A stretch of 62,221 bases of DNA from Candidatus Poribacteria bacterium (GCA_012271015.1 JAAXHD010000427.1:1-62221); one strand, 5' to 3'; counted from the stretch's first letter, positions 28,436 through 50,743 are shown. A program made the numbers and translations. The notes: generated by a model from the sequence alone, not told the origin.

Positions 28436-28649
28436 AACCTCTAACTCACCTGACCGAACCGCAAGGAATAATTAAAAATGGGTTTGTGTATCTTGGAAGC
28501 GTGAACCACATTTGTAGCCTGCAACAATACGCAGAGACACTTTCTTCGCATTGGATTTCAGCGTTTGCAAAAACACGCAGGTGGATATACGGAGAGAAGA
28601 TCAAACCTCTAATTCACCTGACCGAACCGCAAGGAATAATTAAAAAATG
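28436..28649 (+). repeat. two direct copies of the leader repeat (28436-28480, 28604-28649) 168 bp apart
   Basis: aacctctaa[c/t]tcacctgaccgaaccgcaaggaataattaaaaa(a)tgg occurs twice. The second copy contains the atpA ATG; the first is followed by an 8-codon ORF. Confidence 0.9.
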
Positions 28650-30161
28650 GCAAGAGAAGTCCGACCGGACGAAATATCAAATATCCTTAAACAACAACTG
28701 CAACAGTTTGAACAGGACGTGGATGTCTATGACTCCGGCACGGTGCTGGAGGTAGGCGATGGCATCGCGCGGGTACATGGGCTTGCCAACGCTATGGCAA
28801 GTGAAATGATCGAATTTCCTAACGACATCTACGGCATCGCTTTCAACCTCGAAGAAGACAACGTCGGTTGTGTCCTGTTCGGAGAAGATCAGCTCATACA
28901 CGAAGGTGATACTGCCAAACGCACAGGACGGCTCCCCGAAGTCCCTGTAGGTGAAGCGCTTCTCGGACGAATTGTCGATGCACTCGGTCAACCTATTGAC
29001 GGCTTGGATGATATTGAAACAGAGCATCGACTTCCAGTCGAACAGAAAGGTCTCGGCATCGTCCAACGGCAACCGGTGAGCGAGCCTCTTTACACAGGTT
29101 TAAAAGCGATTGACAGCTTAACACCCATCGGGAGAGGGCAACGTGAACTGATTATTGGTGACCGTCGGACTGGCAAAACCGCTATTGCCTTGGATACCAT
29201 CTTGAGTCAGAAAGATACAGACGTTTATTGTATCTATGTCGCTATTGGTCAAAAAGGTTCCACTTTAGCACAAGTTGCAGCAACGCTTCGTGAGCATAAC
29301 GCGATGGAGTATACGACGATCGTCTCCGCGCCTGCAAGTGCACCGTCACCACTTCAGTACCTCGCCCCCTATTCTGGTACTGCAATGGGTGAATACTTCA
29401 GAGACAACGGTAAACACGCCGTCATTATCTATGATGACCTGACGAAGCACGCCTGGGCATACCGTCAAATGTCCTTGCTTTCACGAAGACCTCCAGGGAG
29501 GGAAGCCTATCCGGGTGATGTCTTCTACCTGCACTCGCGTCTGTTGGAACGCGCCGCGAAATTGAGCGATGAATTGGGTGGCGGTTCTCTCACTGCGCTG
29601 CCGATTATTGAAATCTTTGAAGGCGATTTGACGACCTATATCCCGACGAATGTAATCTCCATCACCGATGGACAGATATACCTCACAACTGACCTGTTTA
29701 ACCAAGGTGTGAGACCCGCGATTGATGTTGGTCTATCTGTTTCGCGAGTCGGCGGAGATGCGCAAGTGAGAGCCATGAAATCCGATGAGGTTGCGGGTAC
29801 CCTTAAATTGGATCTCGCGAGTTTCCGGGAAGTCGCTGCATTTGCGCAATTTGGATCGGATTTGGACGCGATGACACAATCCTTGCTTCTACGCGGCACG
29901 CGGCTTGTTGAATTGCTGAAACAACCCCAATATGAACCGATGTCTGTCGAGCGTGAAGTCGCCTCTATCTTCTGTGGCACCAACGGCTATCTCGACGATG
30001 TTGAGGAGACAGAAGTGGCAAGGTTTGAATCCGAATTTTTGCAATACCTTGACCGGAATCATCCTGAACTTCTCACAGAAGTCGCGGAAACGGGTTTGTT
30101 GGGTGATGAACTCCTGGAGACCTTACATGCTGCCGTGAAGACCTTCAAGGAAAATTTTTAA
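28647..30161 (+). CDS. atpA: F0F1 ATP synthase subunit alpha
   Basis: Walker A GDRRTGKT. Full-length similarity to alpha subunits. Confidence 0.97.
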
Positions 30162-30265
30162 TTTTACCTTGCGGTTCGGTGAGGTGGGTTTGGCAAACGA
30201 AGTGCCTTTCCGTAGATCAGAAGAAACACCCCAGCAAAAACCCCTCCGCTACGCTTACGGGCTGC
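30158..30265 (-). repeat. full-length copy of the leader-repeat element in inverted orientation, overlapping the atpA stop codon
   Basis: The reverse complement aligns by eye with 50631-50743 (ggaggggtttttgctggggtgtttcttctgat[c/a]tacgga...ccacct[c/g]accgaaccgcaagg). Confidence 0.85.
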
Positions 30266-30361
30266 TGTTCGGTCTAAGGCTTTGGAATATTGTAGGTTGG
30301 GTTCAACGGAGTGAAACCCAACAAATGTAGGAGAGAACTTCGATTCCCCATAGTTAAAAAT

Positions 30362-31240
30362 ATGGCAACTTTACGAGAAATTCGACGGCGTATCGCCAGC
30401 ATTCAAAATATTGAGCAAGTCACCGATGCAATGCGCGTCGTGGCTGCTGCGCGGCTCCGCCGTGCCCAAGAGAATATTAATGCGACGCGTCCTTACGCCG
30501 ATAAACTCAACACGATCTTGGGACACCTCATCTCGCAGATGGATACTGAAAGTGAAGCACTGACGCACCCGTTGCTTGAAAGGCGTGAGATACAGCATGT
30601 CTGCATCATTTCCGTCTCCGCAGATCGAGGACTGTGTGGGAGTTTCAACAGTAACGTTATTCGAACAACGACACAACGCATAGAACATTATCAAGAGAGT
30701 GGCGCAGATGTAACGCTTATCTGTATCGGTAGACGATCGCAAGAGCATTTTGCTCGGCGTGGTTACGACATCACCGATGCCTACATCAATATTTTTCGCC
30801 AGCTTGAGTTCCAAACGGCTGTTGACGTTGTCCACGAATTTGAACATCTTTATACGGATGAAAGAATCGATAAAGTCGAGGTTATCTATAACAACTTTAG
30901 GTCCGCTATTCTTCAGACGGTGCTTGTTGAGCAGCTTCTCCCGTTAGAACCCGAAATCCCAGTGGGTGATGAACTCTTTCTGGATTATATTTATGAACCG
31001 GGACAAGTGGAACTCTTTGAAATGCTACTCGGCAAACACCTGAATATGCAAATGTGGAAAGTCCTTCTGGATTCCAACGCGGCGGAGCAAGCCGCGCGAA
31101 TGGCAGCGATGGAGAATGCCACACAGAAAGCAAAAGAATTAATCGATGAACTTATTCTCCAACGCAACAGGGCACGTCAAACACAGATCACGACAGAAAT
31201 TTCCGAGATTGTAAGTGGGGCAGCCGCACTGGAGGGTTAA
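30362..31240 (+). CDS. atpG: F0F1 ATP synthase subunit gamma
   Basis: MATLREIRRRIASIQNIEQVTDAMRVVAAARLRRAQ is the canonical gamma N-terminus. The track start 30311 lies in a REP-like hairpin. Confidence 0.93.
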   Translation: MATLREIRRRIASIQNIEQVTDAMRVVAAARLRRAQENINATRPYADKLNTILGHLISQMDTESEALTHPLLERREIQHVCIISVSADRGLCGSFNSNVIRTTTQRIEHYQESGADVTLICIGRRSQEHFARRGYDITDAYINIFRQLEFQTAVDVVHEFEHLYTDERIDKVEVIYNNFRSAILQTVLVEQLLPLEPEIPVGDELFLDYIYEPGQVELFEMLLGKHLNMQMWKVLLDSNAAEQAARMAAMENATQKAKELIDELILQRNRARQTQITTEISEIVSGAAALEG

Positions 31241-31406
31241 GGGTTTTTAAACTATCGGCCTCCGATCTGCCTTCTATTCCATTACGTGCGGGTTTCTGGT
31301 TAAGGCTCAACTGTATTTGAGAGTTTGGTGGAAACACTAAGTCCAGAACTGTAGCCTGCAACAACGGCGCAGGCGGATGAATGTCGATTAACGTTATTCG
31401 CTTAAT

Positions 31407-31442
31407 TTACCTGACCGAACCGCAAGGGAAAATTAAAAAATG
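31407..31442 (+). repeat. leader-repeat terminal copy supplying the start of the DUF1992 gene
   Basis: tttacctgaccgaaccgcaagggaaaattaaaaaATG. Confidence 0.85.
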
Positions 31443-31913
31443 CCTATCGATGTCAACAAACAGATTGAGGAAGCGATGGAACGTGGCGAATTCACAAATT
31501 TGCCCGGCAAAGGTAAACCACTCAAATTAGACACGAATCCTTATCTCACACCCCAGACACGAATGGTGAACCGACTCCTGAAAGAGAACGGATTCGCGCC
31601 ACGGTGGGTTGAATTAGAAAAAGAAATCAAGGAAAAAAAAGCACAACTTGAAAGAATCCTCATAAACCTAAAAGCCCGACGAGAACGGTTGTCGTCTATC
31701 GTCCAACAATATCCACATCGGCGTGAGGTCATCAGTCAGACTTTTGAACAGGAACGGGCTCGCGCTATGGCACAATACAGTGAAAAACTCGAAAACTTGA
31801 ATCGGAAAATTCAACGCGTGAATCTCCTCATGCCAACCCGAAATCGGCAATACGCGTTAATCAATCAGGCACAGGCACTCGCCCACTTCCAGGAGGCGTG
31901 TCCAAGTCTCTGA
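31440..31913 (+). CDS. DUF1992 (DnaJC28-like) domain protein inserted between atpG and atpD
   Basis: GEFTNLPGKGKPLKLDTNPY...RLLKENGFAPRWVELEKEI matches the DnaJC28 conserved domain pattern from memory. Confidence 0.75.
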   Translation: MPIDVNKQIEEAMERGEFTNLPGKGKPLKLDTNPYLTPQTRMVNRLLKENGFAPRWVELEKEIKEKKAQLERILINLKARRERLSSIVQQYPHRREVISQTFEQERARAMAQYSEKLENLNRKIQRVNLLMPTRNRQYALINQAQALAHFQEACPSL

Positions 31914-32000
31914 CTATTCATAGAATGGTGCAGTATTTATCTCTGGTGCGAAACAGAAATGCCAGGAAATTTGAGTGTAACTAAAGGTCAACGACTCTGA

Positions 32001-33428
<1,428 letters not shown>

Positions 33429-33430
33429 TA

Positions 33431-33487
33431 GTTATCAGTTATCGGTTATCAGTTATTGGTTTGTAGGGGCATTCCTTGTGGATGCCC
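33431..33487 (+). repeat. GTTATCR heptamer array followed by a GTAG-headed REP-like hairpin
   Basis: gttatca gttatcg gttatca gttattg (33431-33458), then GTAG-GGGCAT-tccttgtgg-ATGCCC (33463-33487). Confidence 0.85.
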
Positions 33488-33547
33488 GCAAACTCACTGA
33501 TCACAGTGCCCAAGTAATTCTAAAATCTATCATAAAACAGAGTAGAC

Positions 33548-33955
33548 ATGCTAAACAGAAGTTTTCATCTTGAAATTCGGACACCGGAACAGCTGGTTTA
33601 CGAAGGCGATGTGACGAGCGTTAACGCACCGGGAGTTGAAGGCAACTTTCAGATTCTCGCCGGACACATTCCGTTTCTGACCGCCTTGGAGGTCGGTGAG
33701 ATCCGCGTTCGTGAATCGGAAACACCGCAGTTAATGGCGACAAGCGGCGGTGTCTTTGAGGTGCTCCGTACAGGTGTCACTGTCTTAGTTGAAACCGCGG
33801 AATGGGCATCGGAAATCGATGTAGAGCGTGCTGAAAACGCGCTCGCCCGCGCAGAAGCACAACTCACAGCAAATGCACCGGATCTGAATCGTCCGCGGGC
33901 AGAAGCGGCACTCGCCCGCGCACAAAACCGAATCAAAGTCGCAAGTAATTTGTAA
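33548..33955 (+). CDS. atpC: F0F1 ATP synthase subunit epsilon
   Basis: Beta-sandwich N-terminus (GNFQILAGHIPFLTAL) and a helical Ala/Arg-rich C-terminus. Confidence 0.9.
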   Translation: MLNRSFHLEIRTPEQLVYEGDVTSVNAPGVEGNFQILAGHIPFLTALEVGEIRVRESETPQLMATSGGVFEVLRTGVTVLVETAEWASEIDVERAENALARAEAQLTANAPDLNRPRAEAALARAQNRIKVASNL

Positions 33956-34011
33956 TCACACTTCTCCCAATTCCCTGATAGGCGTGCTTTGTAATTGCGT
34001 CTTTTTCTGAA

Positions 34012-34182
34012 TCAGGATTTATCAGATGTGATAAAAACATCAAACTCAGCTGAGGCTTTTCGCAAGAGTTCTCCATTTTTTAAACCTTTCCACCCCTGAT
34101 ATCCAACTGTGACAACTTCAATGGGAGCTGCGAAAAGTTGTCTCAGTCTCTAAGGTAGATGCTCATCAAGCAACACGCGCAT
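34012..34182 (-). pseudogene. remnant of a small PIN-like (DUF5615-type) toxin gene with in-frame TAG and C-terminal truncation
   Basis: Translates MRVLLDEHLP-TAG-RLRQLFAAPIEVVTVGYQGWKGLKNGELLRKASAEFDVFITSDKS-stop. The TAG is at 34150-34152. The pattern MxxLLDENLP...GxKNGELL...FDVFxTxD is recalled for this family. Confidence 0.45.
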
Positions 34183-34244
34183 CAGCCGAATGCTGTGTGC
34201 TGTTCGGTGTCGATTCGACGCTTTGTAAGCGCACCTGATCATCC

Positions 34245-35069
34245 TCACACCGTCAGTGTAACCTCATCCTGCTTCACAATTTCCTTGATATGTCCATATC
34301 CCGTAGATTCTACCAATTCCAACGTCTCTGGAGATAACCGATTCAGAATAGGTTCCGGAAAGTTATGTTTACCGGTGTATTGGGGGAAATACCGCAAGAC
34401 GAGAAACCGTCGATCCCGATCCTTCGGTTTCCAACGCAGTACACCGTGCGTCAGTAACTCCGAAATAATTACGATGTCGCCCGCCTTTGGTGTAATATTG
34501 ATGAAAACGGGATCGTCAAGTGGATCGATGCCATCCTCTTCGTCAAGTGTCAGTAGCTGCTCTGGTCGCTTAAATTCGCTCTTATGCGAACCCGGAATTA
34601 CGATAAGTCCACCATCTCCCGGATAGACATCCGTAAAATACGGGAAACAGACGAAGTTATCACAGTAGATACGTCCGTTATCAATTTCATAGCGAGTGCT
34701 ATACCATCCGTAATCGTCACGAGCGCAGTGTAATCCACCCGGATTCACTGTCGCCCGCTCTCCCGCTTCCCACAAATCGTGCCTGTCGTGTTTCAGAGAT
34801 CCTCTACCGAATCGTGGCTGATTGTCTGTTAGTTCTTTGATAATCGGCCATATCGCTTTGTGCACCGTTAAACGTTCAAGCGATTTATCAAAGGCGAATC
34901 CGTGCTGGTGAAGTCCCTGTATCTCAAAGCCTGGAGGCAGTTCATCGGAAGGTGTCATGATATATCTATCAACTGCCTCAGCCGCCTCTGCTAACGCATC
35001 GCCGGTGATAACATTTTCCAAGTGAAGGTATCCGGTTACATCAAATAGATAGCGTTGTTTCGGTGTCAT
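34245..35069 (-). CDS. phytanoyl-CoA dioxygenase (PhyH) family protein
   Basis: QRYLFDVTGYLHLENV N-terminus and the PGSHK motif. ATG 35069 follows the leader repeat. The track N-terminus (MKWKADLRNVKTTKPPNRTARKIRK) is a translation of the repeat. Confidence 0.8.
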   Translation of the reverse strand: MTPKQRYLFDVTGYLHLENVITGDALAEAAEAVDRYIMTPSDELPPGFEIQGLHQHGFAFDKSLERLTVHKAIWPIIKELTDNQPRFGRGSLKHDRHDLWEAGERATVNPGGLHCARDDYGWYSTRYEIDNGRIYCDNFVCFPYFTDVYPGDGGLIVIPGSHKSEFKRPEQLLTLDEEDGIDPLDDPVFINITPKAGDIVIISELLTHGVLRWKPKDRDRRFLVLRYFPQYTGKHNFPEPILNRLSPETLELVESTGYGHIKEIVKQDEVTLTV

Positions 35070-35132
35070 TTTTCTAATTTTCCTTGCGGTTCGGTTAGGT
35101 GGTTTGGTGGTTTTCACGTTCCGTAGATCCGC
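35070..35132 (-). repeat. leader-repeat copy supplying SD/start context of the PhyH gene
   Basis: The minus strand reads ggatctacggaacgtgaaaaccaccaaaccacctaaccgaaccgcaaggaaaattagaaaaATG. Confidence 0.85.
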
Positions 35133-35200
35133 TTTCCACTTCATTCCGAGCTACGCGCTATTTTAACTCAAAGGAGCGCGAACCGAGCGCGCTCCTATAA

Positions 35201-35252
35201 GCGACCGCTGAAAGGATTTTTTTGTAAAAAATCCGCTCTGACCGCTGACAGC
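35201..35252. repeat. heptamer-array element (GACCGCT units around an A/T palindrome)
   Basis: gcgaccgctgaaaggatttttttgtaaaaaatccgctctgaccgctgacagc. Its reverse complement matches the core of 37205-37260. Confidence 0.8.
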
Positions 35253-35255
35253 TAT

Positions 35256-36143
35256 TCATAGTGCCATGTCGAACTTCGTGCCGGTTACGTTGCCTTTGAC
35301 GTAAGCCTCACGGAAGAGCGTCTGGCGTTTCGGTGGCATTTCGTCAAGTTGTGCCTGTGGTGGCTTTGAAAGACTCCACCGTTTGTCTACCGAGTTATAA
35401 GCGTTGAAAACAGCGACTCGGTCGGTGTCAGGATTTTGCCACGGCTGTCCGCTATGCGTGATTGCCTCTGTGAAGATGATGACAGATCCAGCTGGACAGG
35501 AATAGGTATCCCAGAACTCCCAATCTTGTGTATGGGCACCTTCTGGAGCCGTATAAGCCGCCTTGTGGCTTCCTGTAATGAACATCGTGCCGCCATCACC
35601 CTTCTCCACGGGGTTAAGTTCCCAGACAACACGCGTCAAACCGCTGTAAGCTTGACCGGGAAGGCATGAATACTGATGACAGTCTCCCGGCATACGTAAC
35701 ATACCATTGCCGTTATGGGCATGGAATTTGAAAGGCATTTCGTCCGTTGTGGAGCGCAGTGCCAAAAAGCTCATCTCCATGCGGAATCCGTAACAGGTAT
35801 CCGATGCGAGATAGGACGACGCGAGAAATTCGTTTCCGAATGCCACGACGACAGGATGGTCTGTCAATGTCTCCAAAGGACCCCCGTAGGTTGAGCGATG
35901 GTGTTGGGGAATCGTTTCGGGGTCGTGCTTTAATCGGTAACAGAAATCGCGCATCTTCTTGATCTCTGACTCCGTCAGGACCCCTGGAAACAAAAGCCAA
36001 CCGTTCTTATCAAACAGATATTTCTGTTCCTGTGTTAGAGGAACAACCGATTTGCCATCAGCATTTGTTTGCGTGAGATCCTCAGGTGCTGTTCCCAACG
36101 GACTTCCTAAGTCTTTGTTAAATTTACCTAACTGTTCCACCAC
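35256..36143 (-). CDS. phytanoyl-CoA dioxygenase (PhyH) family protein
   Basis: QKYLFDKNGWLLFPGVL and ITGSHKA. GTG start preceded by GGGAGG. Confidence 0.8.
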   Translation of the reverse strand: MVEQLGKFNKDLGSPLGTAPEDLTQTNADGKSVVPLTQEQKYLFDKNGWLLFPGVLTESEIKKMRDFCYRLKHDPETIPQHHRSTYGGPLETLTDHPVVVAFGNEFLASSYLASDTCYGFRMEMSFLALRSTTDEMPFKFHAHNGNGMLRMPGDCHQYSCLPGQAYSGLTRVVWELNPVEKGDGGTMFITGSHKAAYTAPEGAHTQDWEFWDTYSCPAGSVIIFTEAITHSGQPWQNPDTDRVAVFNAYNSVDKRWSLSKPPQAQLDEMPPKRQTLFREAYVKGNVTGTKFDMAL

Positions 36144-37181: not shown

Positions 37182-37204
37182 TTTTCAGCCTCCATGATGT
37201 AGGG

Positions 37205-43465: not shown

Positions 43466-43939
43466 CTAAAGTTCAAAATTAGTGGAGCATGACGCAGTGG
43501 GCCACGCGACCTTCTCCTTCGTCGCAAGGTCTCTTACCTCCAAGCCTGTCCACGCATCAATCCAGCCGGGTCCTTCTTCTTTATTTCTCAGAAGGAACGA
43601 GAAGTTGTGGTGGGCAGACCCAAAACTATTCCCCGGTACCTCTTTCTCTTTTGTTTCGGGGAGTGGTGTAATAGACCCGCCGTTCCAATGCACTTCCACC
43701 GTGAACGTCCCATACAATTTGACCTTCCCGATGCCATAGTTGTCAACGGCGACCGAATGACTGCTGTGAGCAGTTTCAGTGAGGGTATCAAACCAGGTGC
43801 AGACGTAGGTGGATCCATACACATTTCCAGCAAATTCAGTGCTCGATCTAAAATCCTGATCAAGCGCGTAGAGGTCCGTTAGAAGTAAACAGGTTGTTGC
43901 AAAAAGAAGCGTCAGTGTGAAAACAACAAAGCATTTCAT
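43466..43939 (-). CDS. small secreted protein of unknown function, cassette partner 1
   Basis: Signal peptide MKCFVVFTLTLLFATTCLLL and AAGGAG SD. Weak similarity to 45204-45764 (AHSSHSVAVDNYG vs AYSTHSAYIGNYAG). Confidence 0.65.
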   Translation of the reverse strand: MKCFVVFTLTLLFATTCLLLTDLYALDQDFRSSTEFAGNVYGSTYVCTWFDTLTETAHSSHSVAVDNYGIGKVKLYGTFTVEVHWNGGSITPLPETKEKEVPGNSFGSAHHNFSFLLRNKEEGPGWIDAWTGLEVRDLATKEKVAWPTASCSTNFEL

Positions 43940-44117
43940 TTTAGTATCTCCTTTTGACTCGCTCTAAGGCGTCTTCATTTACGCAGGCGGTGTGATAATA
44001 AATCACGGCTCTGCTGCTACTAAATCCCATCTATGTAAGGTATCAATAATATCAACGAGAGGCTCCGTGGTGCCTGTGAGGTTCCAGCCCAGAATCGAGG
44101 GGCATCGACAGATCGAT

Positions 44118-45146
44118 TCAATTTGAGTGCTTCTCGCCGACTTTCAACTTACTCCACTGCGTGCTTTTTTTTCCGTTTGCGGATGCGTCAAGCGTGCCTG
44201 CTATCCATCGAGGTAATAAGTCTTCTGCGGGGTGTGTGGTGAGTTGCGTTAGTGTGCTGCTGATGAAGTTATAGCGATAGATGTCGTAATTGCCGCGTTC
44301 TTTGGTTATTAATCCTGTGGCATCCGCGGATAAAAGTATCTCTTTATTGTTTATCCAACAAGATGCCCCAGGGCGAAATCCTTTTGGAAGTACCACCCGT
44401 TCTGTTCTTTTTGCGGCAAGGTGATAAATAAAAATGTTGCTTTCTCTGATAACAAGGTCTGTATCAGCTCCGTCTTTATTTACTATAATATCAAATCTAT
44501 CCTCAACAAACATGAGGCGTTTGCTATCCGGGGCCCAGCGCGGGTACATACGAATGACAAGGAAATCAGGGTTAGCATTCGGGGGGAAGATCGGTTTCTC
44601 ACCACGTCCATCTAGCGCGACAATGTGAATGTTCTTTTCAAAGCCGGGTGTCTTTTCAAAAGCGATGAAACGGCCATCTGCAGAAATATCTGATTCGGTT
44701 ATCTTCTCAACGCCCTGGAGGGGGCGTGTCACGCCGGTCTCTATGTCGATAAAGAAAAGCCGATAGGTACGCTTATCAAAGTCCCATGTTGTGATCGCCA
44801 ATTCCTGTCCATCTGGTGTGAAGAAATTGAGCCACTGAAATGAAAGTGCTTCATCTTCATTTGTTAGAACCTGCTCATCGCTACCATCCGCTTTCATGAG
44901 AATGACCTCTGATATTTTTTGTCTATCTTGCATGCTGCTGCGCAGAAATGTGAGTGTTTGACCGTCTGGTGCCCATAAAGGAACATAGTCACCAGCCGGA
45001 TTGTTCGTTATTCTGCGAAGGTGGCTGCCATTATCATTCATCGTATAAATTTCGGAGTTGCCATCGCGTTTAGAATAAAACACGATTTTGGTGTTCGCTA
45101 CAGTGGCAAACATCAACAAAAGACATGAAAGAAAAATAGTTTTCAT
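44118..45146 (-). CDS. secreted PD40/TolB-like beta-propeller protein, copy 2
   Basis: Signal peptide and PD40 repeats (LWAPDGQTLTF, FFTPDGQELAI). AAGGAG SD. Confidence 0.85.
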   Translation of the reverse strand: MKTIFLSCLLLMFATVANTKIVFYSKRDGNSEIYTMNDNGSHLRRITNNPAGDYVPLWAPDGQTLTFLRSSMQDRQKISEVILMKADGSDEQVLTNEDEALSFQWLNFFTPDGQELAITTWDFDKRTYRLFFIDIETGVTRPLQGVEKITESDISADGRFIAFEKTPGFEKNIHIVALDGRGEKPIFPPNANPDFLVIRMYPRWAPDSKRLMFVEDRFDIIVNKDGADTDLVIRESNIFIYHLAAKRTERVVLPKGFRPGASCWINNKEILLSADATGLITKERGNYDIYRYNFISSTLTQLTTHPAEDLLPRWIAGTLDASANGKKSTQWSKLKVGEKHSN

Positions 45147-45203
45147 GAGAATCTCCTTAGGGAGAGCGAGAACATAAATGCCCTCGCTCAGAACTACACC
45201 GAA

Positions 45204-45764
45204 TTATTGGACAGTAAACGGTATATCACCTTCCGCGTGCCACCGTGCTTTTAGCCCGGCATCGTCTTGATCTCTCGCCTGAATGTTGGTATATGCCGTG
45301 AAAAGGTGGGGCCCCGGTTGAAGCCCGCTAGTAGAAACGCTCTGTTGATAATGATATTCGCTCCAATAATAATCTGCCCATCCATCATAGTAAGGCTGTA
45401 GTTTTCTTGAACGTATCCTGGGATTCCTATTGGTCCGGTTGAGATCCTCACCATTGGGGCCTCGAACTGAGGTGAGATAAACGAGATCAAACAAAATGTC
45501 TTGATCTCCAAAGTCACCACCAGCGTAGTTGCCAATGTAGGCCGAGTGTGTGCTATATGCCCGATTGTTGGCAGACCACATATTCTCCACAAAAACCTGA
45601 CCGTAGGTATTCGGCAATTTCTCGAACAAAGGGTCCTCCAAATAATCTGTGTCGCCATAACTTATATCAGAGGCAAGTGCAGCTTCGGTGTGCATTGAGA
45701 CGGAACTTAATCCTACACAGAGCATAGCGATAAAAAGTATCGCGTGAAAGAAGGAATGGGTCAT
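45204..45764 (-). CDS. small secreted protein of unknown function, cassette partner 2
   Basis: Signal peptide MTHSFFHAILFIAMLCVGLSSVSMHTEA. AAGGAG sits 6 nt upstream of ATG 45764; the track start 45809 has no SD. Confidence 0.65.
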   Translation of the reverse strand: MTHSFFHAILFIAMLCVGLSSVSMHTEAALASDISYGDTDYLEDPLFEKLPNTYGQVFVENMWSANNRAYSTHSAYIGNYAGGDFGDQDILFDLVYLTSVRGPNGEDLNRTNRNPRIRSRKLQPYYDGWADYYWSEYHYQQSVSTSGLQPGPHLFTAYTNIQARDQDDAGLKARWHAEGDIPFTVQ

Positions 45765-45915
45765 AATCATCTCCTTTGTTTGCGAAGGGCATGGATGTGT
45801 GTAATACATTTTCGCTTTTGTGTGAGTAACGGTGATAGTTTTAGTTTCCGCGCGAAAATCGCCGCAGAAACATTTTTATATGCTGAGCATTGCTCAATAG
45901 CGTCATAATAATAGG

Positions 45916-45933
45916 TAGCAATTATCGTGCCAA
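45916..45933 (-). promoter_or_regulatory. sigma-54 (-24/-12) promoter, consensus match
   Basis: The minus strand reads TTGGCACGATAATTGCTA, i.e. TGGCAC-N5-TTGCT. It lies ~150 nt upstream of the start at 45764. Confidence 0.75.
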
Positions 45934-45975
45934 TTTGAAAACCTATACAGTTACAGGGATCAGATCATTTACCAA

Positions 45976-46030
45976 CCCTCCAAAATTTGGAAATTTTCTA
46001 AATTTTGGAGGGTTACCCTCTAAATTTTGG
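45976..46030. promoter_or_regulatory. palindromic upstream sites (candidate enhancer/UAS for the sigma-54 activator)
   Basis: CCCTCCAAAATTT (45976-45988), 11 nt, AAATTTTGGAGGG (46000-46012), plus a third half-site CCCTCTAAATTTTGG (46016-46030). The sites lie 45-100 bp upstream of the -24 element. Confidence 0.5.
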
Positions 46031-46130
46031 AATCTGCCTCACATTAAACCTTTATACGCGCCCAGGGTGATTTCGTTTTGGGTTTCGATCTTGGTTTTCA
46101 TTTACATAAGTTAAGGTTTTGGCACAAAAT

Positions 46131-46152
46131 CGCGAGCACCGCTCGCGCCTAC
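46131..46152 (-). repeat. GTAG-headed REP-like palindrome
   Basis: The minus strand reads GTAG-G-CGCGAGC-ggt-GCTCGCG. Confidence 0.65.
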
Positions 46153-46224
46153 AGTGGAGAAATAGTCACATATATAAAGGGAATCTTTAAAACGAAATGG
46201 CCCTGTATACGCGCCGTATTCCAC

Positions 46225-46252
46225 TTGACGTATTCTGAGAGTGTGTTAAAAT
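46225..46252 (+). promoter_or_regulatory. sigma-70-type promoter candidate for the activator gene
   Basis: TTGACG, 16 nt, TAAAAT. Confidence 0.35.
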
Positions 46253-46293
46253 AAACAAAATCAGATACTCTAAAATTAGAGCGGAGAAGGACT

Positions 46294-47379
46294 ATGAAAG
46301 GCAGTACGAAAGAAAATATGGTAGATTCAGGGCATCGTGATGCGGAGGCGACTGCCAGGCGCAGTCGCCCGGCTCGGCACGGATTACACGGGGAGTATAC
46401 GGATATCCTCGGCGAAAGCCCGGAGATGATTGAAGTCCTTGAAAAAATAGAAGTGGTTGCGGATACAGATGCGGCGGTGCTGATTCAAGGAGAAACTGGA
46501 ACCGGTAAAGAGTTAATAGCATACGCCTTACACCGAAACAGTTCTCGTGCGGCAGAGGAGTTGGTTGTCGTTAACTGCGCAGCGATACCGGAAAATTTAT
46601 TGGAGAGCGCACTCTTTGGACATGAGAAAGGCGCGTTCACCGGGGCCACGGAGCGACAGATCGGTAAGTTTGAAAGTGCGCACCGGAGCACAATTTTCCT
46701 TGATGAAATCGGGGAGATGCCGCTGTCTCTTCAGCCGAAGTTGCTACGGACGCTTCAGGATCGGAAGATTGAACGCATCGGCGGCACGAAACCGATTCCC
46801 GTAGATTTTCGAGTGGTCGCGGCTACCAACCGGGACCTGCAGCACGCCGTTAGAGATGGCACTTTCCGCGAAGACCTCTATTATCGGTTGAAGGTCGTTT
46901 CGCTCTCACTGCCCCCCTTGCGAGAACGGCGAGAGGATATCCGTCTCTTAACAAACCACTTTCTGCAAAAGCATGCTCAGGACCGAAGCCCCTTACCGAT
47001 AAAGATAGCCTCCAGCACCCTAAACCTTCTCTACACCTACCCCTGGCCCGGAAATATACGTGAATTAGAAAACGCCATTTTTTACGTCTGCCTTTTTGGC
47101 AAAACAGATGCTATCTTGCCGAAGCACCTCCCCAAGGATATTCAAGACTTCAACGGAGAAAGATGGCGTTCAGCGGTAGAAGTTGCTGGCGGACTTTATA
47201 CGCAAGATACAATAGACCTCCCTCTCGGATTAACGTTGAAGGAGGTCGAAAGGGAGTGGATTCTGCAAACGTTGGCATATTTGGACGGAAATCGGACAAA
47301 GACCGCAAAGGCTTTGGGAATGAGCCTAAGTTCTTTGTATAATAAGTTAAACAGTTATGCAGCGGAACCGAAGTTTTAG
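46294..47379 (+). CDS. sigma-54-dependent transcriptional activator lacking an N-terminal sensory/receiver domain (PspF/HrpR-like architecture)
   Basis: The AAA+ core starts ~37 aa from the N-terminus: GETGTGKE (Walker A), GAFTGA loop, IFLDEIGEM (Walker B). C-terminal Fis-type [24 protein letters not shown]. Confidence 0.92.
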
Positions 47380-47421
47380 GCAACGGTACTTCTTGGACCT
47401 CTTCCTATTCTCAAAAAGCAC

Positions 47422-47449
47422 TTGACAAAAATCTCGAAACCCCTATAAT
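47422..47449 (+). promoter_or_regulatory. near-consensus sigma-70 promoter
   Basis: TTGACA (47422-47427), 16 nt, TATAAT (47444-47449). Confidence 0.55.
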
Positions 47450-47489
47450 GGACATCACAATATGGTTGAGTCTTAAGGAGGTCCTCCCA

Positions 47490-48155
47490 GTGTCTTTAAA
47501 ACAACGTATCCATAATAAAGAAGCGATTAACATTGCATCCGGTGTCTCGTTCGGCTGCACCCGCGACGAGATGGAGGCGGTTCTCGGTCAGGGCAACTAC
47601 GATTTGATCAGTACCGACCATCAGCACGGTGCCGCGAATGAAGATAAACTTGTTGAATATTGTGCTATGGCGAGTGAATTCGATGTAGGCGTGCAGCTTC
47701 GCATCAAACACACGCGCAACGCGTATCTCATCGGCAATCTGTTAGATCTCGGTCCCCAGGCGATTGTCGTGCCACAGGTCGAGAGCGTTGAAACGGTGGA
47801 CGAAGCAATCGATTTTTTCTACTATCCTCAGAAGGGAAAACGGAGTTGGGGTCCCAGCAGTGCTTACGGCATAAAACAGGGCTTGGACCGCCTTGAGTAC
47901 GCCGAGTGGTGGAACAATACCGGCATTCTCATCTTACAGATCGAATCTGTGGATGCCGTGATTAACGTCAGCAAATTCGCGAAACCCGGCGTGGATATGG
48001 TAACCTTCGGTGAGAATGACCTGAATTTTAGTATAGAATCGTATCCGAGTTCCCCATTTAAAAATCTTCAGGAGTGCATTGCACACGTGCAAACACAGCT
48101 CGCAGATACCCACGTCAAGGTAGGTGCGGGGCATACACCGTCAGGGCGGTTGTAG
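47490..48155 (+). CDS. HpcH/HpaI-family aldolase
   Basis: DHQHG..., LRIKH..., IVVPQVESVETVDEAI pattern. GTG 47490 is preceded by AAGGAGG (47474-47480). The track ATG 47448 overlaps the -10 box. Confidence 0.8.
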   Translation: MSLKQRIHNKEAINIASGVSFGCTRDEMEAVLGQGNYDLISTDHQHGAANEDKLVEYCAMASEFDVGVQLRIKHTRNAYLIGNLLDLGPQAIVVPQVESVETVDEAIDFFYYPQKGKRSWGPSSAYGIKQGLDRLEYAEWWNNTGILILQIESVDAVINVSKFAKPGVDMVTFGENDLNFSIESYPSSPFKNLQECIAHVQTQLADTHVKVGAGHTPSGRL

Positions 48156-48241
48156 GAGTAAAGTCTAATTCTCCGTGGGAGGGGTTTTTAACCCCGATTG
48201 CATGAACTTTAGGCAATTTAATCCTGAGAAGGAGTGTTATA

Positions 48242-49486
48242 ATGTCAAAACGAATTAAAATCGGGATTATTGGATGCGGTATGGTAGCCGGTTCACATGT
48301 CAATGGGTATCTTGACCATCCACAGCATGCCGAAATCGTTGCTGTTTGCGATACGGTGGAAGCGAATGTAAAGCGCCGACATGCGGAAGCCCTTTCTGGT
48401 GCTGCATCGCGCGCGGAAGCCGCAAAAGCCGACGCAGAAAAGGCAGATACAACGGAAGCACGCGAGCAGTTGGAGGCAGACGCTGCTCTCTGGTCAGAAT
48501 ATAGCGACAACGGTGTCAAAATCTTTAGCGACTACAACGAAATGTTGAGGGACTGTGATTTAGACGCCGTCAGCCTTGCCCTACCACCGTTTGTCCATGA
48601 GCCTGCCACCGTCGCAGCCGCTCAGGCCGGAAAGCACGTCTTCTGCGAAAAACCGATGGCGCGCACCGCAACAGAGGCGAGAAATATGCGGGATGCCTGT
48701 GATGCCGCTGGCGTTAAACTCGCATACCAGAGCGGCGGTACATGCCTTGATCCGACAAGTTTCGCCATTCGGGACTATATCACCTCTGGGAAACTCGGTG
48801 ATGTCTATTACGGCAGACTCACCAGTTACCGGGTCCGTGGCAGGCCGAATGTAGATATGTTCGGCTACGGCAGATGGTTCCTCCATTCGGTTTACAGTGG
48901 AGGCGGCACCATATACGACACAGGGGTCTACCTTATCAACCGCTCCATCTATCTGCTCGGTTCACCACAGCCCGCTACTATCAGTGGTATCGCCTACCGC
49001 GGCATGCTTCCTGAATATACGGGTGAGCCCATCAACGACGTTGAGGAACACGTCTCCGTGTTTGTCCGGTTTACAAATGGGATGTCGTTCACGTATGAAA
49101 ACGGTTGGTCGAGCAATATGGCAGGACAACCACAGGGCATCTTCATTTTCGGATCCAAGGGTTCGTTTAGCAACGACAAACTCTTCCTTGAAAACGGGGA
49201 GTGGGATACCGATGACCAGGGCAATCGCAGACGCTATCAAGGCAATCTCGTCGAAACGCCGTTAGAGTTACCAGATAGGTCCATCCCCGATAAGTTCCGT
49301 GATTTCCTTGATGCGTGTAACAGCGATGCGCAGCCTGTCAGCAATGGGGACATCGGTCTGAAGGTTACGGAGATTATGAGTGGTGCACTCTTGTCAGCGA
49401 AACTCGGTCGTGAAGTCAGCGTAGAAGAACTTTATGAATTGGAAGGACTCCGCGCCGAACCGATACCCGGTTGGCATATCCCATAA
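48242..49486 (+). CDS. Gfo/Idh/MocA family oxidoreductase (with Ala/Glu-rich insertion after the Rossmann beta2-alpha region)
   Basis: KIGIIGCGMVAGSHVNGY, VFCEKPMA. Confidence 0.9.
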   Translation: MSKRIKIGIIGCGMVAGSHVNGYLDHPQHAEIVAVCDTVEANVKRRHAEALSGAASRAEAAKADAEKADTTEAREQLEADAALWSEYSDNGVKIFSDYNEMLRDCDLDAVSLALPPFVHEPATVAAAQAGKHVFCEKPMARTATEARNMRDACDAAGVKLAYQSGGTCLDPTSFAIRDYITSGKLGDVYYGRLTSYRVRGRPNVDMFGYGRWFLHSVYSGGGTIYDTGVYLINRSIYLLGSPQPATISGIAYRGMLPEYTGEPINDVEEHVSVFVRFTNGMSFTYENGWSSNMAGQPQGIFIFGSKGSFSNDKLFLENGEWDTDDQGNRRRYQGNLVETPLELPDRSIPDKFRDFLDACNSDAQPVSNGDIGLKVTEIMSGALLSAKLGREVSVEELYELEGLRAEPIPGWHIP

Positions 49487-49623
49487 GAGCGCATTCAGCG
49501 AATTTAATGTTGACAAATTACCCTTCAATCGGGTATGCTTTAAAAGGTGTCGTTGGGTGTGCAGAAGCATGTGTAAGTTGAAATATTATCTTGAAAGAAC
49601 GTGAATGAAACGGAGGATTAGAT

Positions 49624-50472
49624 TTGAAAGGTTTTGAGTTTTTTGAACCTACTACCCTCGCAGAGGCATCTCGGTTATTCGCAGGGGAACACGCGCAGCT
49701 CCTTGCAGGCGGGACAGACCTCGTTATCGGTATGAAAGCACTCACCGAAACGCCGCAGTCCGTGATTAGTTTACAGAAAATTCCGGGATTGGCGGGTGTC
49801 ACTGCCGAAGCCGATGGCAGTATTAGTGTCGGCGCAATGACAAAGGTGCGGGAGATCGAGTTATCAGCAGATATCCAGAAACACCACACTGCACTGGCAG
49901 AAGGTGCCACAGAAATAGGCTCTATCCAGATTCGCAATCTTGCAACTATCGGTGGAAACATTGCGCACGCTTCTCCTGCTGCGGACACTGTTGCCGGTTT
50001 ACTCGTCGCCGATGCGCAGGTCGACATCGCAAGTGCGGATGGTGAGCGTACCGTATCGATTGATGAACTTTTCACGGGACCCGGACAGACCATCTTAGCA
50101 CCCGGTGAGATTATCACACGCTTTCGCCTACCGAATCCTGCGTCTGGCTCCCACTATATTAAGCATAAAATCCGTGAAGTAATGGATCTGGCATTCATCG
50201 GTGTTGCCGCTGCCGTTAATCTCGATAATGGAACAATCACGGATGCCCGAATTGGACTCGCAGCCGTTGCCCCTACGCCAATTCGTGCGACGGCGGCAGA
50301 GAATCTTCTAAGGGGAAATGAACCGACAGCGGAACTCTTGGAACAAGCCGGTGAAGCCGCGGCAGCTGCTTCAAGCCCGATATCTGATTTACGATGCTCC
50401 GCAGAACATCGCAGAGAGATGGTCGATGTACTTACGAGACGAACCTTACAAGAGGCAGTCGCGAGGGTATAA
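49624..50472 (+). CDS. molybdenum hydroxylase FAD-binding subunit (CoxM/XdhB-like)
   Basis: FEFFEPTTLAEA...LLAGGTDL...ATIGGNIAHASPAAD. TTG start 7 nt after GGAGG. Confidence 0.88.
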   Translation: MKGFEFFEPTTLAEASRLFAGEHAQLLAGGTDLVIGMKALTETPQSVISLQKIPGLAGVTAEADGSISVGAMTKVREIELSADIQKHHTALAEGATEIGSIQIRNLATIGGNIAHASPAADTVAGLLVADAQVDIASADGERTVSIDELFTGPGQTILAPGEIITRFRLPNPASGSHYIKHKIREVMDLAFIGVAAAVNLDNGTITDARIGLAAVAPTPIRATAAENLLRGNEPTAELLEQAGEAAAAASSPISDLRCSAEHRREMVDVLTRRTLQEAVARV

Positions 50473-50578
50473 GTTCAATTAATTGTTTTTATTGCTCTCC
50501 TACAATCGGAGCAGAAGCCTGCAAAAACGGTGCAGGCGGCTTCCGGGCAGATAACGCCAAACTATTAACCTACGTTGT

Positions 50579-50743
50579 TTAACCGCAAGGTAAAAATAGT
50601 TGTCAGTTAAGAGGTTTTTGTTAAACCGAAGCGCGTAGCCCGTAACGTAGTGGAGGGGTTTTTGCTGGGGTGTTTCTTCTGATATACGGAGAGGGACTTC
50701 ATTTATCCAACCCACCTGACCGAACCGCAAGGAATAATTAAAA
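50579..50743 (+). repeat. leader-repeat element, full copy (50631-50743) plus partial copy (50579-50598), inside the coxM-coxS spacer
   Basis: gcgcgtagcccgtaacgtagtggaggggtttttgctggggtgtttcttctgatatacggagagggacttcatttatccaacccacctgaccgaaccgcaaggaataattaaaa. Confidence 0.9.

Follow-up and report, generated by a model that had tools for sequence, protein, structure and literature searches.

A modular repeat dispersed through one genus of Poribacteria probably provides adjoining genes with their translation-initiation region

Introduction

Small repeats that bring a ribosome-binding site to the genes behind them have been described as REP2 in Neisseria meningitidis and Neisseria gonorrhoeae and as IR-A/IR-B on plasmids of Borrelia (Parkhill 2000; Morelle 2003; Dunn 1994; reviewed by Delihas 2011, PMC3184786). 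According to that review, these elements are about 100 to 150 nt long and without terminal inverted repeats; stem-loops lie close to their 5' end, and the 3' end carries a ribosome-binding site right before open reading frames (ORFs). They constitute the 5' UTR of the gene and may be included in annotated ORFs. The repeat analyzed here, from the genome of a sponge symbiont of the Poribacteria, shares these traits, and Neisseria REP2 appears to be its closest described analogue, by likeness in working and not by membership through descent; it may be regarded as the rare REP2 type on a bigger scale and in a less tidy form. REP2 has 23 to 26 copies in the same review, compared to 217 (pattern search) to 248 (nhmmer) in the genome studied here, which is about ten times more. 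In contrast to REP2, the Poribacteria repeat lies mostly inside strings of co-directional genes, with no convincing promoter of its own found; the ATG lies outside the repeat, the repeat is a mosaic of exchangeable hairpins and nested inserts, its inverted copies give stop codons, and its downstream genes show no sign of being a co-regulated set.

The mycobacterial interspersed repetitive units (MIRU; Supply 1997, summarized in PMC3184786) are, in that summary, also located between cistrons within polycistronic mRNAs, overlap flanking stop and start codons with their ends and have empty as well as filled orthologous sites, but they form tandem minisatellite arrays, carry short direct repeats at the filled sites and occupy some 40 to 50 loci. 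The copies in Poribacteria are mostly single, no target duplication was seen, and they carry a defined module of Shine-Dalgarno (SD) sequence plus tail. The TAACTGA direct repeats of marine Beggiatoaceae, cyanobacteria and some Bacteroidetes, for which a role in translation was proposed (MacGregor 2015, PMC4679880), are likewise abundant, intergenic and placed a few nucleotides from the starts of unrelated genes, including essential ones, but they consist of short arrays of a 7-nt unit and have no SD sequence. The genome studied here has 69 sets of NAACTGA arrays, a module separate from the repeat.

REP/BIME elements, which are mobilized by RAYTs, resemble the repeat in having short hairpins preceded by GTAG (in REPs, a GTAG or CGTC tag at the 5' foot of the palindrome), often as inverted pairs, and in forming mosaics with other motifs. 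However, the RAYT-like genes in this genus (ten examined) are flanked by GCCCCAGCGGGGCGAcAGGTGTATAG and not by the hairpins of the repeat, the pattern of classical REPs is reversed (loops are conserved and stems co-vary), and 49% of the copies abut start codons, whereas REPs are mainly found in gene-distal (3') extragenic positions. To our knowledge, a ribosome-binding-site module is not found in any REP. Correia elements and other MITEs, as well as the Rickettsia palindromic elements, are also small, non-coding and co-transcribed, can alter the expression of neighbors and are sometimes read through in ORFs. A MITE, however, is bounded by terminal inverted repeats and duplicates its target site (TA for Correia); in the repeat, neither terminal inverted repeats nor a duplicated flank at filled compared to empty sites were found.

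Results

Architecture of the repeat

The repeat is roughly 90 to 130 bases long, with a consensus running from GTAGCC... to ...AATTAAAAA. Its 5' part typically consists of GTAG, which itself or as a 1-base variant stands before the stem in most full copies, and of a 5- to 6-bp hairpin with the conserved loop AACAACGGC or GUAAUGAAAUGGAG, optionally followed by nested mini-inserts. Then come the linker CGGATATACGGAGAGG, a spacer with a fixed length of about 18 nt and a variable sequence, and a nearly invariant, ribosome-binding-site-like 3' module, ACCTGACCGAACCGC-AAGGA-aTAATTAAAAA, of which the last 11 nt are the A/T-rich tail. TAA stops within the tail terminate upstream reading frames in most copies. 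The SD-plus-tail submodule is sometimes tandemly duplicated, copies of the repeat being otherwise mostly single, and other small modules crowd the spacers of the element-bearing genus.

The 5' hairpin is the sole structured part: the 6-bp stem and the 9-nt loop are retained in 31 aligned copies, the stem co-varying, with compensatory changes at two pairs, around a conserved loop. Four leaders were folded: the AAGGA-tail-AUG stretch was unpaired in one and engaged in weak pairing in three, and none of the four was significantly more stable than shuffled sequence. No inverted repeat joining both ends was found in the copies at 31351-31439 and 50635-50743. The Rfam 15 covariance models gave no match in the window at the gathering score, and over 27600-31500 with E up to 5 they gave two chance matches only, both outside the repeat.

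Copies in the window

In the window, i.e., the whole stretch of 62,221 nt that was analyzed, the exact core CCGAACCGCAAGG occurs six times; with up to two mismatches allowed there are nine matches versus 1.6 expected, a number reached by none of 100 shuffles. An nhmmer profile of the 3' module gave six matches and a weaker seventh (Table 1). All copies listed in the preliminary description lie where it had placed them, as does the longer shared part GGAGGGGTTTTTGCTGGGGTGTTTCTTCTGAT[A/C]TACGGA (50658-50676 and, inverted, 30223-30241); missing from its list were the related copies at atpH (27890) and at 50517-50597.

Table 1. Copies of the repeat and related modules in the window
Feature	Coordinates	Strand	Exact core CCGAACCGCAAGG	nhmmer match of 3' module	Composition and remarks
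Short related variant directly 5' of atpH (ATG 27890)	27841..27889	+			Without CCGAACCGC core; hairpin with conserved-type loop (CCTGCCC-GAAACGAAGTGGA-GGGCAG), then CCAGTGGGAC, then tail ATAATTAGAAAT
Orphan partial copy just 3' of atpH stop	28437..28478	+	28454	28437-28478 (partial)	3' module only; E=3.6e-12, model 28-69 of 69
Full element adjoining atpA ATG (28647)	28514..28646	+	28622	28581-28646	By sequence and nhmmer; GTAG + hairpin split by nested insert (28527-28600), linker GGATATACGGAGAG, variable spacer, 3' module ACCTGACCGAACCGCAAGGAATAATTAAAAA
Long-form element, inverted, behind atpA	30155..30268	-	30167	30220-30155	E=6.8e-18
Hairpin module, inverted, in atpG-DUF1992 spacer	31258..31299	-			Second loop type; loop2 match 31272-31285
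Short-form full element adjoining DJC28_CD/DUF1992 ATG (31440)	31351..31439	+	31415	31372-31439	Hairpin GTAG-GCCTGC/AACAACGGC/GCAGGC, linker, spacer, 3' module
Full element adjoining PhyH ATG (35069, minus)	35070..35154	-	35082	35123-35071	Copy open in frame
Tandem upstream copy 5' of coxS	50517..50599	+		50535-50597 (weaker)	Second subfamily, core TTAACCGCAAGG; E=0.004
Long-form element 5' of coxS-like gene	50635..50743	+	50720	50679-50743	E=1.1e-18

Variants of the kind found before atpH (hairpin + CAGGAG..ATAAATTAAAA + ATG) are also present at orthologous sites in relatives, and the second subfamily stands at other orthologous starts in relatives. Behind the orphan copy, the previously described mini-ORF of 8 codons is indeed present (28478 ATG GGT TTG TGT ATC TTG GAA GCG TGA). 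For the inverted element behind atpA, the reverse complement of the tail gives the gene its stop TAA (30159-30161), and AtpA has the C terminus KENF* here and in L001 and L003 compared to KENW(A/T/V)xS* in element-free relatives.

The ATG positions of atpA, DUF1992 and PhyH directly behind the repeat agree with the preliminary description. At the DJC28_CD/DUF1992 start, relatives have a native spacer of 33 to 41 nt ending in AGGAGGTTCCAG-ATG. At PhyH, the longest ORF (34245..35144, minus) runs through the repeat, so that ORF calling was misled as had been stated; the copy is open in frame, which leads to a spurious extension to 35144, and in four relatives the start is always at ATGACACC(G/A)AAA matching 35069, with a different upstream sequence in each. 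The repeat also stands upstream of the coxS-like gene, with 18 nt between its end and the ATG at 50762, and the gene retains an AGGAG of its own behind the repeat (50750-50754), 7 nt before the ATG.

Genome-wide junctions

Junction classes were counted on the 202 copies with enough flank, with an ORF threshold of at least 100 amino acids. The preference for start codons is strong, since 99 of these copies (49%) abut an ATG compared to 2.3% of random positions, and in the pattern set the first ATG is exactly 12 nt past AAGG in 82 copies and 10 to 14 nt past it in 114. The upstream neighbor of start-abutting copies is co-directional in 85 of 96 cases (89%); atpH-atpA is an example of a conserved operon with the repeat between its genes. 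The downstream genes are functionally unrelated, a random sample comprising those for a MoxR ATPase, PurE, HisRS, a sulfatase and AtpA. A second junction class is made up by 25 copies (12%, compared to 0.9% at random positions) whose tail contains the stop codon of a convergent gene. Copies also lie in tandem, inside ORFs, or 17 to 150 nt 5' of starts that retain their own SD sequence, as in coxS. At comparison site 8, the tail-like stretch ATAAATTAAAAA gives the upstream gene its TAA in the same spacer.

In tandem and stop-abutting copies the tail is followed by other sequence and not by ATG, and the orphan copy lacks it as well. The ATG belongs to the gene, not to the repeat, and the part of the preliminary description that had the repeat supply it does not stand; its view of a portable initiation region is supported by the comparison below, and the ORF-calling artifact is confirmed.

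Orthologous sites and phyletic range

Of the 57 genomes of one Poribacteria genus, 54 contain the strict pattern, with 0 to 170 matches per genome across the genus, and outside the genus 1 or 2 copies were present in five of 94 other Poribacteria genomes searched and none in the rest. For 45 element-bearing starts, 116 orthologous sites were compared in six relatives. Ordinary native leaders stand at 55 of these sites, mostly with GGAGG, AGGAG or GAGG at a modal gap of 6 nt to the ATG, and species G153 (= G115), with 2 copies genome-wide, has the native leader at all of its 19 sites. Among 43 Poribacteria loci, 3 have the element in front of atpA; the remaining ones show ..CACAGAGGACTGAAAAT-ATG, a native leader common to more than 35 loci across the phylum. 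Element-bearing alleles lack the native GGAGG-type SD sequence, and the AAGGA of the repeat alone remains. This comparison supports the portable initiation region for unrelated genes; about 100 of them have a start codon directly adjoined by the putative ribosome-binding site of the repeat, which appears to have replaced the original one.

Natural deletions give further insight. Where the outgroup has the full element (sites 0, 1, 3 and 17), a conspecific genome retains AAGGA plus tail at sites 1, 3 and 17 and the whole 3' module at site 0. In the deletion derivatives with AAGGA plus tail, the 11-nt distance is unaltered and ACCTGACCGAACCGC is gone, which is evidence against CCGAACCGC being required for expression. 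Divergence in 32 orthologous copies, partly anchor-biased, was 1.9% in the SD sequence and 10% in the block ACCTGACCGAACCGC, compared to 11% for synonymous positions and 15% for the spacer. At unrelated loci, linker and spacer are 85 to 97% identical between copies while the flanks are random. Judged from these comparisons, the repeat is modular, recently spreading and specific to one genus.

Discussion

In sum, our data point toward a dispersed repeat that is specific to one genus, works like REP2 and resembles BIMEs in being a mosaic of modules; its last 16 to 17 nt would be the translation-initiation region of the adjoining gene, a reading to which we assign a probability of about 0.7. In our model, the repeat is transcribed within mRNAs as 5' UTR or intercistronic spacer, its AAGGA may pair with UCCUU at the 3' end of the 16S rRNA (which ends in GGATCACCTCCTTTCT and has a canonical anti-SD), and the A/U-rich, unstructured tail would set the spacing to the AUG; in start-abutting copies, AAGGA sits 11 nt before the ATG. 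Copies may spread among loci, their modules being reshuffled one by one, and where a copy adjoins a start codon the native SD sequence is gone, which would leave the gene dependent on the repeat; the tail of an inverted copy can give a TAA stop to a convergent gene. AAGGA and tail would then act as a functional ribosome-binding site. Compared to the native GGAGG and its gap of about 6 nt, AAGGA with a gap of 11 nt is a weaker and longer arrangement, and a related variant has its purine block 13 to 15 nt from the ATG, so that the A/U-rich tail could be more important than the SD sequence.

The tail also fits a -10 box positioned for a leaderless transcript. If the 3' module was a promoter, alone or additionally, as in the promoter-bearing Neisseria REP2, [T/A]A[T/A]AAT would be the -10 element, placed exactly 6 nt ahead of the A in ATG, and the mRNAs would be leaderless. 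This is unlikely. The sequence logo at +12 to +17 does read [A/T]A[A/T]AAT (A2 94%, T6 95%), followed by TAAAAA and the ATG, and a consensus scan finds TTCACC-16-AATAAT in the atpA copy and CTGACC-17-TAAAAT in the coxS copy, both weak with 9 of 12 positions; furthermore, promoters are described in REP2 and Borrelia IR repeats (PMC3184786). However, the consensus has a poor CCCACC at the -35 position, a co-directional gene precedes 89% of the start-abutting copies, often within conserved operons such as atpH-atpA, and near-consensus sigma-70-type promoters stand 5' of the repeat in several long divergent spacers, one with TTGACA-N17-TATAAT and three with similar sequences. In RNA-derived contigs, which are assembled contigs with DNA carry-over possible, the 3' module is contiguous with coxS (50716-51001) and the upstream gene with the first copy (50150-50632), and contig depth over the atp operon, a weak measure, does not rise past the module. 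Most likely, the 3' module is an SD sequence with an A/U-rich leader within mRNAs rather than a promoter.

Ribosome binding does not account for the near-invariance of ACCTGACCGAACCGC, and paralogous copies agree much more closely in ACCTGACCGAACCGC(AAGGA) than in the spacer next to it. It is imaginable, though rather improbable, that this block is, in line with the second idea of the preliminary description, the operator for a genus-specific trans factor, i.e., an RNA-binding protein of the CsrA, S1 or Csp kind or a small RNA, with about 100 genes in one post-transcriptional regulon. GCAAGGA is similar to the GGA-centered sites of CsrA-type regulators. The start-abutting TAACTGA repeats of Beggiatoaceae were read as such operators (PMC4679880). 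On the other hand, the downstream genes have no common function, copy numbers range from 0 to 170 among congeneric species, orthologous genes manage without the repeat, natural deletions remove the block and leave AAGGA plus tail alone, and in orthologous copies the block diverges at about the synonymous rate (10% versus 11%). Its conservation among paralogues would be equally explained if the copying machinery recognizes it.

We consider it very unlikely that the repeat is nothing more than selfish or neutral filler, its likeness to a ribosome-binding site being incidental and the junction fixed since any other would kill the gene. Copies that abut stops, occur in tandem or inside ORFs or stand 17 to 150 nt 5' of starts with their own SD sequence would suit such a filler, as would the other small modules that fill the spacers of the genus, but the essential atpA and hisS have no other SD sequence in reach after loss of the native one, the deletion derivatives retain exactly AAGGA plus tail at the unaltered distance of 11 nt, and the SD sequence is the slowest-evolving part of orthologous copies. 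That the repeat was never mobile and is an ancestral conserved leader, which selection maintained and some lineages have lost, is extremely unlikely despite the nearly invariant 3' module, given that it is absent from sister genera except for 1 or 2 copies in a few genomes, that the native atpA leader stands in more than 35 loci phylum-wide versus the element in 3, that linker and spacer are nearly identical at unrelated loci, and that distinct subfamilies and tandem and nested copies exist.

As to the spread of the repeat, the comparison of filled and empty orthologous sites gave no target-site duplication or target motif. Y1 (PF01797) transposases, including RAYT-like ones, occur throughout the genus, but a cognate RAYT was not found: hairpins with AACAACGGC or GTAATGAAATGGAG were absent from the flanks of 10 RAYT-like Y1 genes (157 to 173 amino acids) in ten genomes of the genus and from those of eight genes of the IS200/IS605 type. 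The different repeat that flanks the ten RAYT-like genes has the form GCCCCAGCGGGGCGA..GTGTATAG.

RESULTS

Copies in the window and anatomy of the repeat

Contig C199, which makes up the window, belongs to an assembly of 4.95 Mb (439 contigs, 47.7% G+C), and the AtpA loci nearest to its own all come from 'Candidatus Poribacteria' MAGs. At the coordinates for which the preliminary description had reported copies of a dispersed repeat, the sequence agrees with that report. The exact 13-mer CCGAACCGCAAGG occurs 6 times in the window, and with up to 2 mismatches it gives 9 matches compared to 1.6 expected, a number reached in 0 of 100 shuffles. A profile of the 3' part, built from the genome's own copies, located the matches listed in the table, and Pfam assigned the adjoining genes to atpH (OSCP), atpA, atpG, DJC28_CD (formerly DUF1992), PhyH, and a CoxS-like [2Fe-2S] protein.

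Profile matches to the repeat in the window
Feature	Position	Strand	Evidence
3' part of repeat	28437-28478		profile match
3' part of repeat	28581-28646		profile match
3' part of repeat	30220-30155	(-)	profile match
3' part of repeat	31372-31439		profile match
3' part of repeat	35123-35071	(-)	profile match
3' part of repeat	50679-50743		profile match
Weaker repeat copy	50535-50597		profile match

Sequence logos and alignments divide the repeat into four parts: a GTAG-hairpin, a linker, a spacer, and a 3' module. The first consists of GTAG and a hairpin of 5 to 6 bp with a conserved loop (AACAACGGC or, in other copies, GTAATGAAATGGAG) and a covarying stem (CCTGC/GCAGG, CTTGC/GCAAG, CCCGC/GCGGG); nested inserts, GTTTTTGCTGGGGTGTTTC among them, may stand at its 3' foot or, inverted, in the loop. 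The linker CGGATATACGGAGAGG is followed by a spacer of about 18 nt that is fixed in length and weak in consensus, and then by the almost invariant 3' module ACCTGACCGAACCGCAAGGaAtAATTAAAAA. These modules are separable. Within 200 nt upstream of 3' modules, a hairpin of the first type is found in about one-quarter and one of the second type in about one-third, the others having another hairpin or none, and only 48 of the 143 first-type hairpins have a 3' module behind them. We found no terminal inverted repeat joining the two ends of the element, no Rfam match to the repeat even at E values up to 5, and no leader fold more stable than shuffled sequence (z of +0.2 to -1.5). Two ideas about individual parts were rejected: the variable spacer does not look like a gene-specific guide, its complementarity to the first 80 nt of its own gene being no greater than to those of other genes (duplex energies of -9.94 and -9.96 kcal/mol, respectively; P = 0.55), and an extended pairing of ACCTGACCGAACCGC, the near-invariant block 5' of AAGGA, with the 16S rRNA 3' end covers 10 of 15 positions by eye, which are scattered and incompatible with simultaneous Shine-Dalgarno (SD) pairing.

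In the atpA copy (window 28527-28600), the nested insert TACGCAGAGACACTTTCTTCGCATTGGATTTCAGCGTTTGCAAAAACAC interrupts the hairpin loop; it recurs at other loci of this genome (contigs C364 and C350), is absent from the orthologous copies in the related loci L001 and L004, and has a shorter form, the inverted mini-insert GTTTTTGCTTGGGTGTTTC.

Position of the repeat against start codons

This genome contains 217 copies by pattern (core with at most 1 mismatch plus A/T-rich tail) and 248 by nhmmer (E < 0.01). The distance from AAGG to the first ATG is exactly 12 nt in 82 copies and 10 to 14 nt in 114, and the junction between repeat and ATG is fixed at 12 ± 1 nt. Junction classes were counted on the 202 copies whose flanks measure 400 nt or more: 99 adjoin an ATG at the head of an ORF of 100 or more amino acids, compared to 2.3% of random positions, only 2 adjoin a GTG or TTG start, and 25 adjoin, inside the tail, the stop codon of a convergent gene (random, 0.9%); 27 sit 17 to 150 nt upstream of a start, and the others are tandem, intragenic, or unclassified. 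The genome-wide distribution of distances to start codons, proposed as a check in the preliminary description, thus revealed a very strong preference of the copies for sites right before start codons, so that the outcome named there as refuting the idea did not come about.

The element takes the place of native Shine-Dalgarno sequences

Forty-five element-bearing starts of this genome were compared with the orthologous starts of six relatives. In the resulting 116 comparisons, the relative had the same core in 43, a variant core in 11, a partial module only in 7, and an ordinary leader in 55; one species (G153, apparently the same as G115, which has 2 copies in total) was native at 19 of 19 sites. 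Native leaders at these starts carry GGAGG, AGGAG, GAGG, or GGAG, most commonly 6 nt from the ATG, and the 16S rRNA 3' end reads ..GGATCACCTCCTTTCT. The element-bearing alleles are without a native SD, and the sole purine block near their ATG is the AAGGA of the repeat, 11 nt upstream. For example, the native atpA leader GAGGACTGAAAAT-ATG becomes ..CGCAAGGAATAATTAAAAA-ATG with the element, and that of the DUF1992 gene changes from AGGAGGTTCCAG-ATG to ..CGCAAGGGAAAATTAAAAA-ATG. Genes changed in this way include atpA, hisS, and purE. A contrasting case is coxS, which has two tandem copies upstream and yet keeps its own AGGAG 7 nt from the ATG.

Natural deletions narrow down the part that is kept. 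In the conspecific complete genome G162 (AtpA 99.6% identical), several sites differ from those of this genome: remnants precede three starts (AAGGAATAATTAAAAC-ATG at site 1, AAGGAACATTAAAAA-ATG at site 3, and AAGGAAGATTAAAAAT-ATG at site 17, the last inside the end of the upstream gene), and at site 0 exactly the 32-nt 3' module is kept. In G163, which is less closely related, the element is complete at sites 0, 1, 3, and 17, and therefore deletion in G162 is the parsimonious reading. AAGGA and the tail are always kept in these deletions, and the 11-nt distance is unchanged. Among 32 orthologous copies, the SD changes most slowly, with a divergence of 1.9%; third codon positions diverge by 11%, ACCTGACCGAACCGC by 10%, and the spacer by 15%, values that are partly biased by the anchor of the alignment. 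A site-wise check for purifying selection on ACCTGACCGAACCGC gave about 10% divergence versus 11% at synonymous positions, in an alignment that is anchored on the core and hence biased. The deletion remnants, the slowly changing SD, and the loss of native SDs are our main argument that AAGGA and the tail would constitute the working ribosome-binding site (RBS) and that the upstream block would be dispensable for expression. The earlier proposal of a portable translation-initiation region is supported by comparative evidence, namely, the lost native SDs, the retained AAGGA and tail, and the start codon preference. Its companion claim, that the repeat supplies the ATG, is not supported; the ATG has no place in the element, unlike in the REP2 repeat of Neisseria.

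Promoter or leader

The tail could alternatively be a -10 box from which a leaderless mRNA is launched. Its arrangement, [T/A]A[T/A]AAT-TAAAAA-ATG, has the geometry of such a box, and a simple promoter scan flags it. However, the sequence at the -35 position is CCCACC, and a co-directional gene precedes 85 of the 96 start-abutting copies (median spacer, 184 nt). Furthermore, several long divergent spacers have near-consensus sigma-70-type promoters upstream of the repeat (one of them TTGACA-N17-TATAAT, three more close to it). RNA contigs also carry parts of the repeat joined to neighboring genes, although these are assembled contigs broken at repeats rather than reads, and DNA carry-over is possible: in four sponge metatranscriptome assemblies, one contig (50150-50632) reaches from the upstream gene across the first copy near coxS, another (50716-51001) begins inside the 3' module and continues into coxS, and a contig from atpH extends 40 nt into the orphan module. 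A promoter function of the tail is therefore unlikely, and we favor its role as part of an RBS-bearing leader.

The strain present in four sponge metatranscriptomes (RNA runs X15, X18, X19, and X20) has 96 other letters in place of the 199-nt atpG-DUF1992 spacer (window 31240-31440), and one contig covers this spacer together with both flanking genes, atpG and the DUF1992 gene. The spacer is thus polymorphic at the strain level, and the two genes are apparently cotranscribed.

Stop codons, start codons, and misread ORFs

In 63 of 100 start-abutting copies, the tail gives an in-frame stop, usually TAA AAA ATG, no more than 12 nt away from the ATG. Some 20 copies are open, so that an ORF caller can extend the gene. 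One of these is the copy at the PhyH gene, for which ORF calling was indeed misled: the gene was called at 34245..35144, and its true start is 35069. The inverted tail reads TTTTTAA. AtpA ends in KENF*, with the TAA taken from the tail, in the three genomes with an inverted copy (window 30140-30161; L001 and L003), and in KENW(A/T/V)xS* in those without (L002, L004-L028), but KENMTNS* in L002; the inverted repeat has thus rewritten the AtpA C terminus. At another locus (site 8), the upstream co-directional gene takes its TAA from a tail-like stretch that lies in one spacer with the repeat.

The listed atpG ORF opens at GTG 30311, but homology with all relatives begins only at residue 16 to 18, and the real start is therefore ATG 30362, which is preceded by the GTAG-hairpin of a further repeat type (GTAGGTTGGGTT..AACCCAAC). 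At position 2285 of contig C81 (+), the tail is followed by a RuvC-like gene (..IILGIDPGIANTGYGVVE) that shows no ATG, GTG, or TTG start; either it starts at ATA/ATT, or its start codon was removed by the repeat.

DISCUSSION

Spread of the repeat

The strict pattern is present in 54 of the 57 genomes of the window's genus, with 0 to 170 matches per genome; among 94 other Poribacteria genomes searched, five have 1 or 2 copies and the remainder none. In complete genomes of one genus, the counts are 2 in G115 (L005), 89 in G056 (L004), and 140 in G050 (L003). Only 3 of the 43 Poribacteria loci have the element upstream of atpA; the native leader ..GACTCCACAGAGGACTGAAAAT-ATG is common to more than 35. 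At unrelated loci, copies are 85 to 97% identical in linker and spacer and have random flanks, and distinct subfamilies exist (e.g., core TTAACCGCAAGG). The restricted distribution, the native alleles, and the near-identical copies at unrelated loci are the signature of a spreading family and not of an inherited regulatory site.

As to how copies move, near-identical strains differ in internal parts of copies with flanks and 3' module unchanged (sites 11 and 19), which points to an exchange of modules between copies. On contig C163 (site 13), a full unit is inserted into a resident 3' module, which is thus duplicated on both sides, as would result if copies recombined within the module or if a circle integrated. 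At this place (C163 (+) 4856-4977), the orthologous 3' module of G162 is read through inside an ORF; in this genome, an ATG follows the inserted unit. One may imagine a self-propagating "translation-initiation cassette" that is site directed to position -1 of start codons and overwrites the native RBS, with ACCTGACCGAACCGC as the site recognized by the copying machinery or by a shared regulator and with a tail that could double as a leaderless -10 box. We regard this scenario as improbable; if true, the cassette would rewire how translation starts at more than 100 genes in each genome, essential ones included.

Other models were rejected. An "ATG-to-ATG deletion" that brings the module to the start codon fails at the single recent case that was studied, on the minus strand of C139 (reverse coordinate of the ATG, 14594), where a 138-nt element reaches from stop codon to ATG, because two relatives have a 1.5-kb two-gene, element-free stretch there. 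In these relatives (L251 in G162 and L252 in G163), 1.5 to 1.8 kb with a STAS-type anti-sigma antagonist and a sigma factor-like gene separate the PhyH-like gene from the next gene. An "exact replacement from stop to start" is in large part only apparent, since spacers that turn over fast, as is ordinary, probably stand out against conserved coding DNA, and strains recombine with one another; between this genome and L001, the DUF1992 protein is 91% and AtpA 99.6% identical. Nearly every genome of the genus (60 of 61) encodes Y1 transposases (PF01797), and yet a REP/RAYT label does not fit the element despite the GTAG-tagged hairpins: ten RAYT-like Y1 genes from ten genomes (157 to 173 amino acids, MADTYTQLYIHIVF..; L233-L242) have another, classical REP, GCCCCAGCGGGGCGAcAGGTGTATAG, on both sides, and eight IS200/IS605-type genes examined have none of the element's hairpins in their flanks. 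The genus thus has a second repeat system, distinct from the element, in the classical REP (40 copies in this genome) and the RAYT-like genes. A MITE was dismissed for want of terminal inverted repeats and target site duplications, neither of which, nor a target motif, is visible in the sites and copies compared.

Relation to known repeats and significance

Literature searches for repeats and RNA motifs of Poribacteria gave no paper that describes the element. Among described repeats, its nearest counterparts are Neisseria REP2 and the similar IR repeats of Borrelia, which are 120 to 150 bp long, have no terminal inverted repeats, carry two 5' stem-loops, a promoter, an RBS, and an ATG, and lie immediately upstream of genes in 23 to 26 copies, their route of proliferation being unknown (PMC3184786). 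Like REP2, the Poribacteria element provides a 5' untranslated region (UTR) and an RBS; it differs in having neither a convincing promoter nor an ATG, in its larger scale and mosaic build, and in also serving as a stop codon. With MIRUs it shares the intercistronic position and ends that overlap flanking codons (PMC3184786), and with the TAACTGA arrays of Beggiatoaceae the position against start codons (PMC4679880). The element is thus a rare, already known kind of repeat in a new form. RBS-bringing repeats are otherwise known from few cases of low copy number, Neisseria REP2 and Borrelia IR, and here, in a phylum that is uncultured, the same principle is seen at about 100 genes of each genome. 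Many natural alleles of one gene with and without the element exist across dozens of complete genomes, and therefore it is testable whether a selfish repeat can take over translation initiation at housekeeping genes and what this costs. Furthermore, AAGGA with AUAAUUAAAAA is a compact natural 5' UTR module that could be tried for expression work. On the practical side, annotation of about one-fifth of the element-bearing genes may contain a false N-terminal extension, and genome assemblies of these organisms break at the repeat.

A further kind of short repeat, not reported for Poribacteria, resembles the TAACTGA repeats of Beggiatoaceae and cyanobacteria (PMC4679880): this genome has 69 sets of at least two NAACTGA heptamers in direct orientation, many of them very close (a few nucleotides) to a start codon. 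Examples are found at 50600-50615 of the window and in the atpA-atpG spacer of L001.
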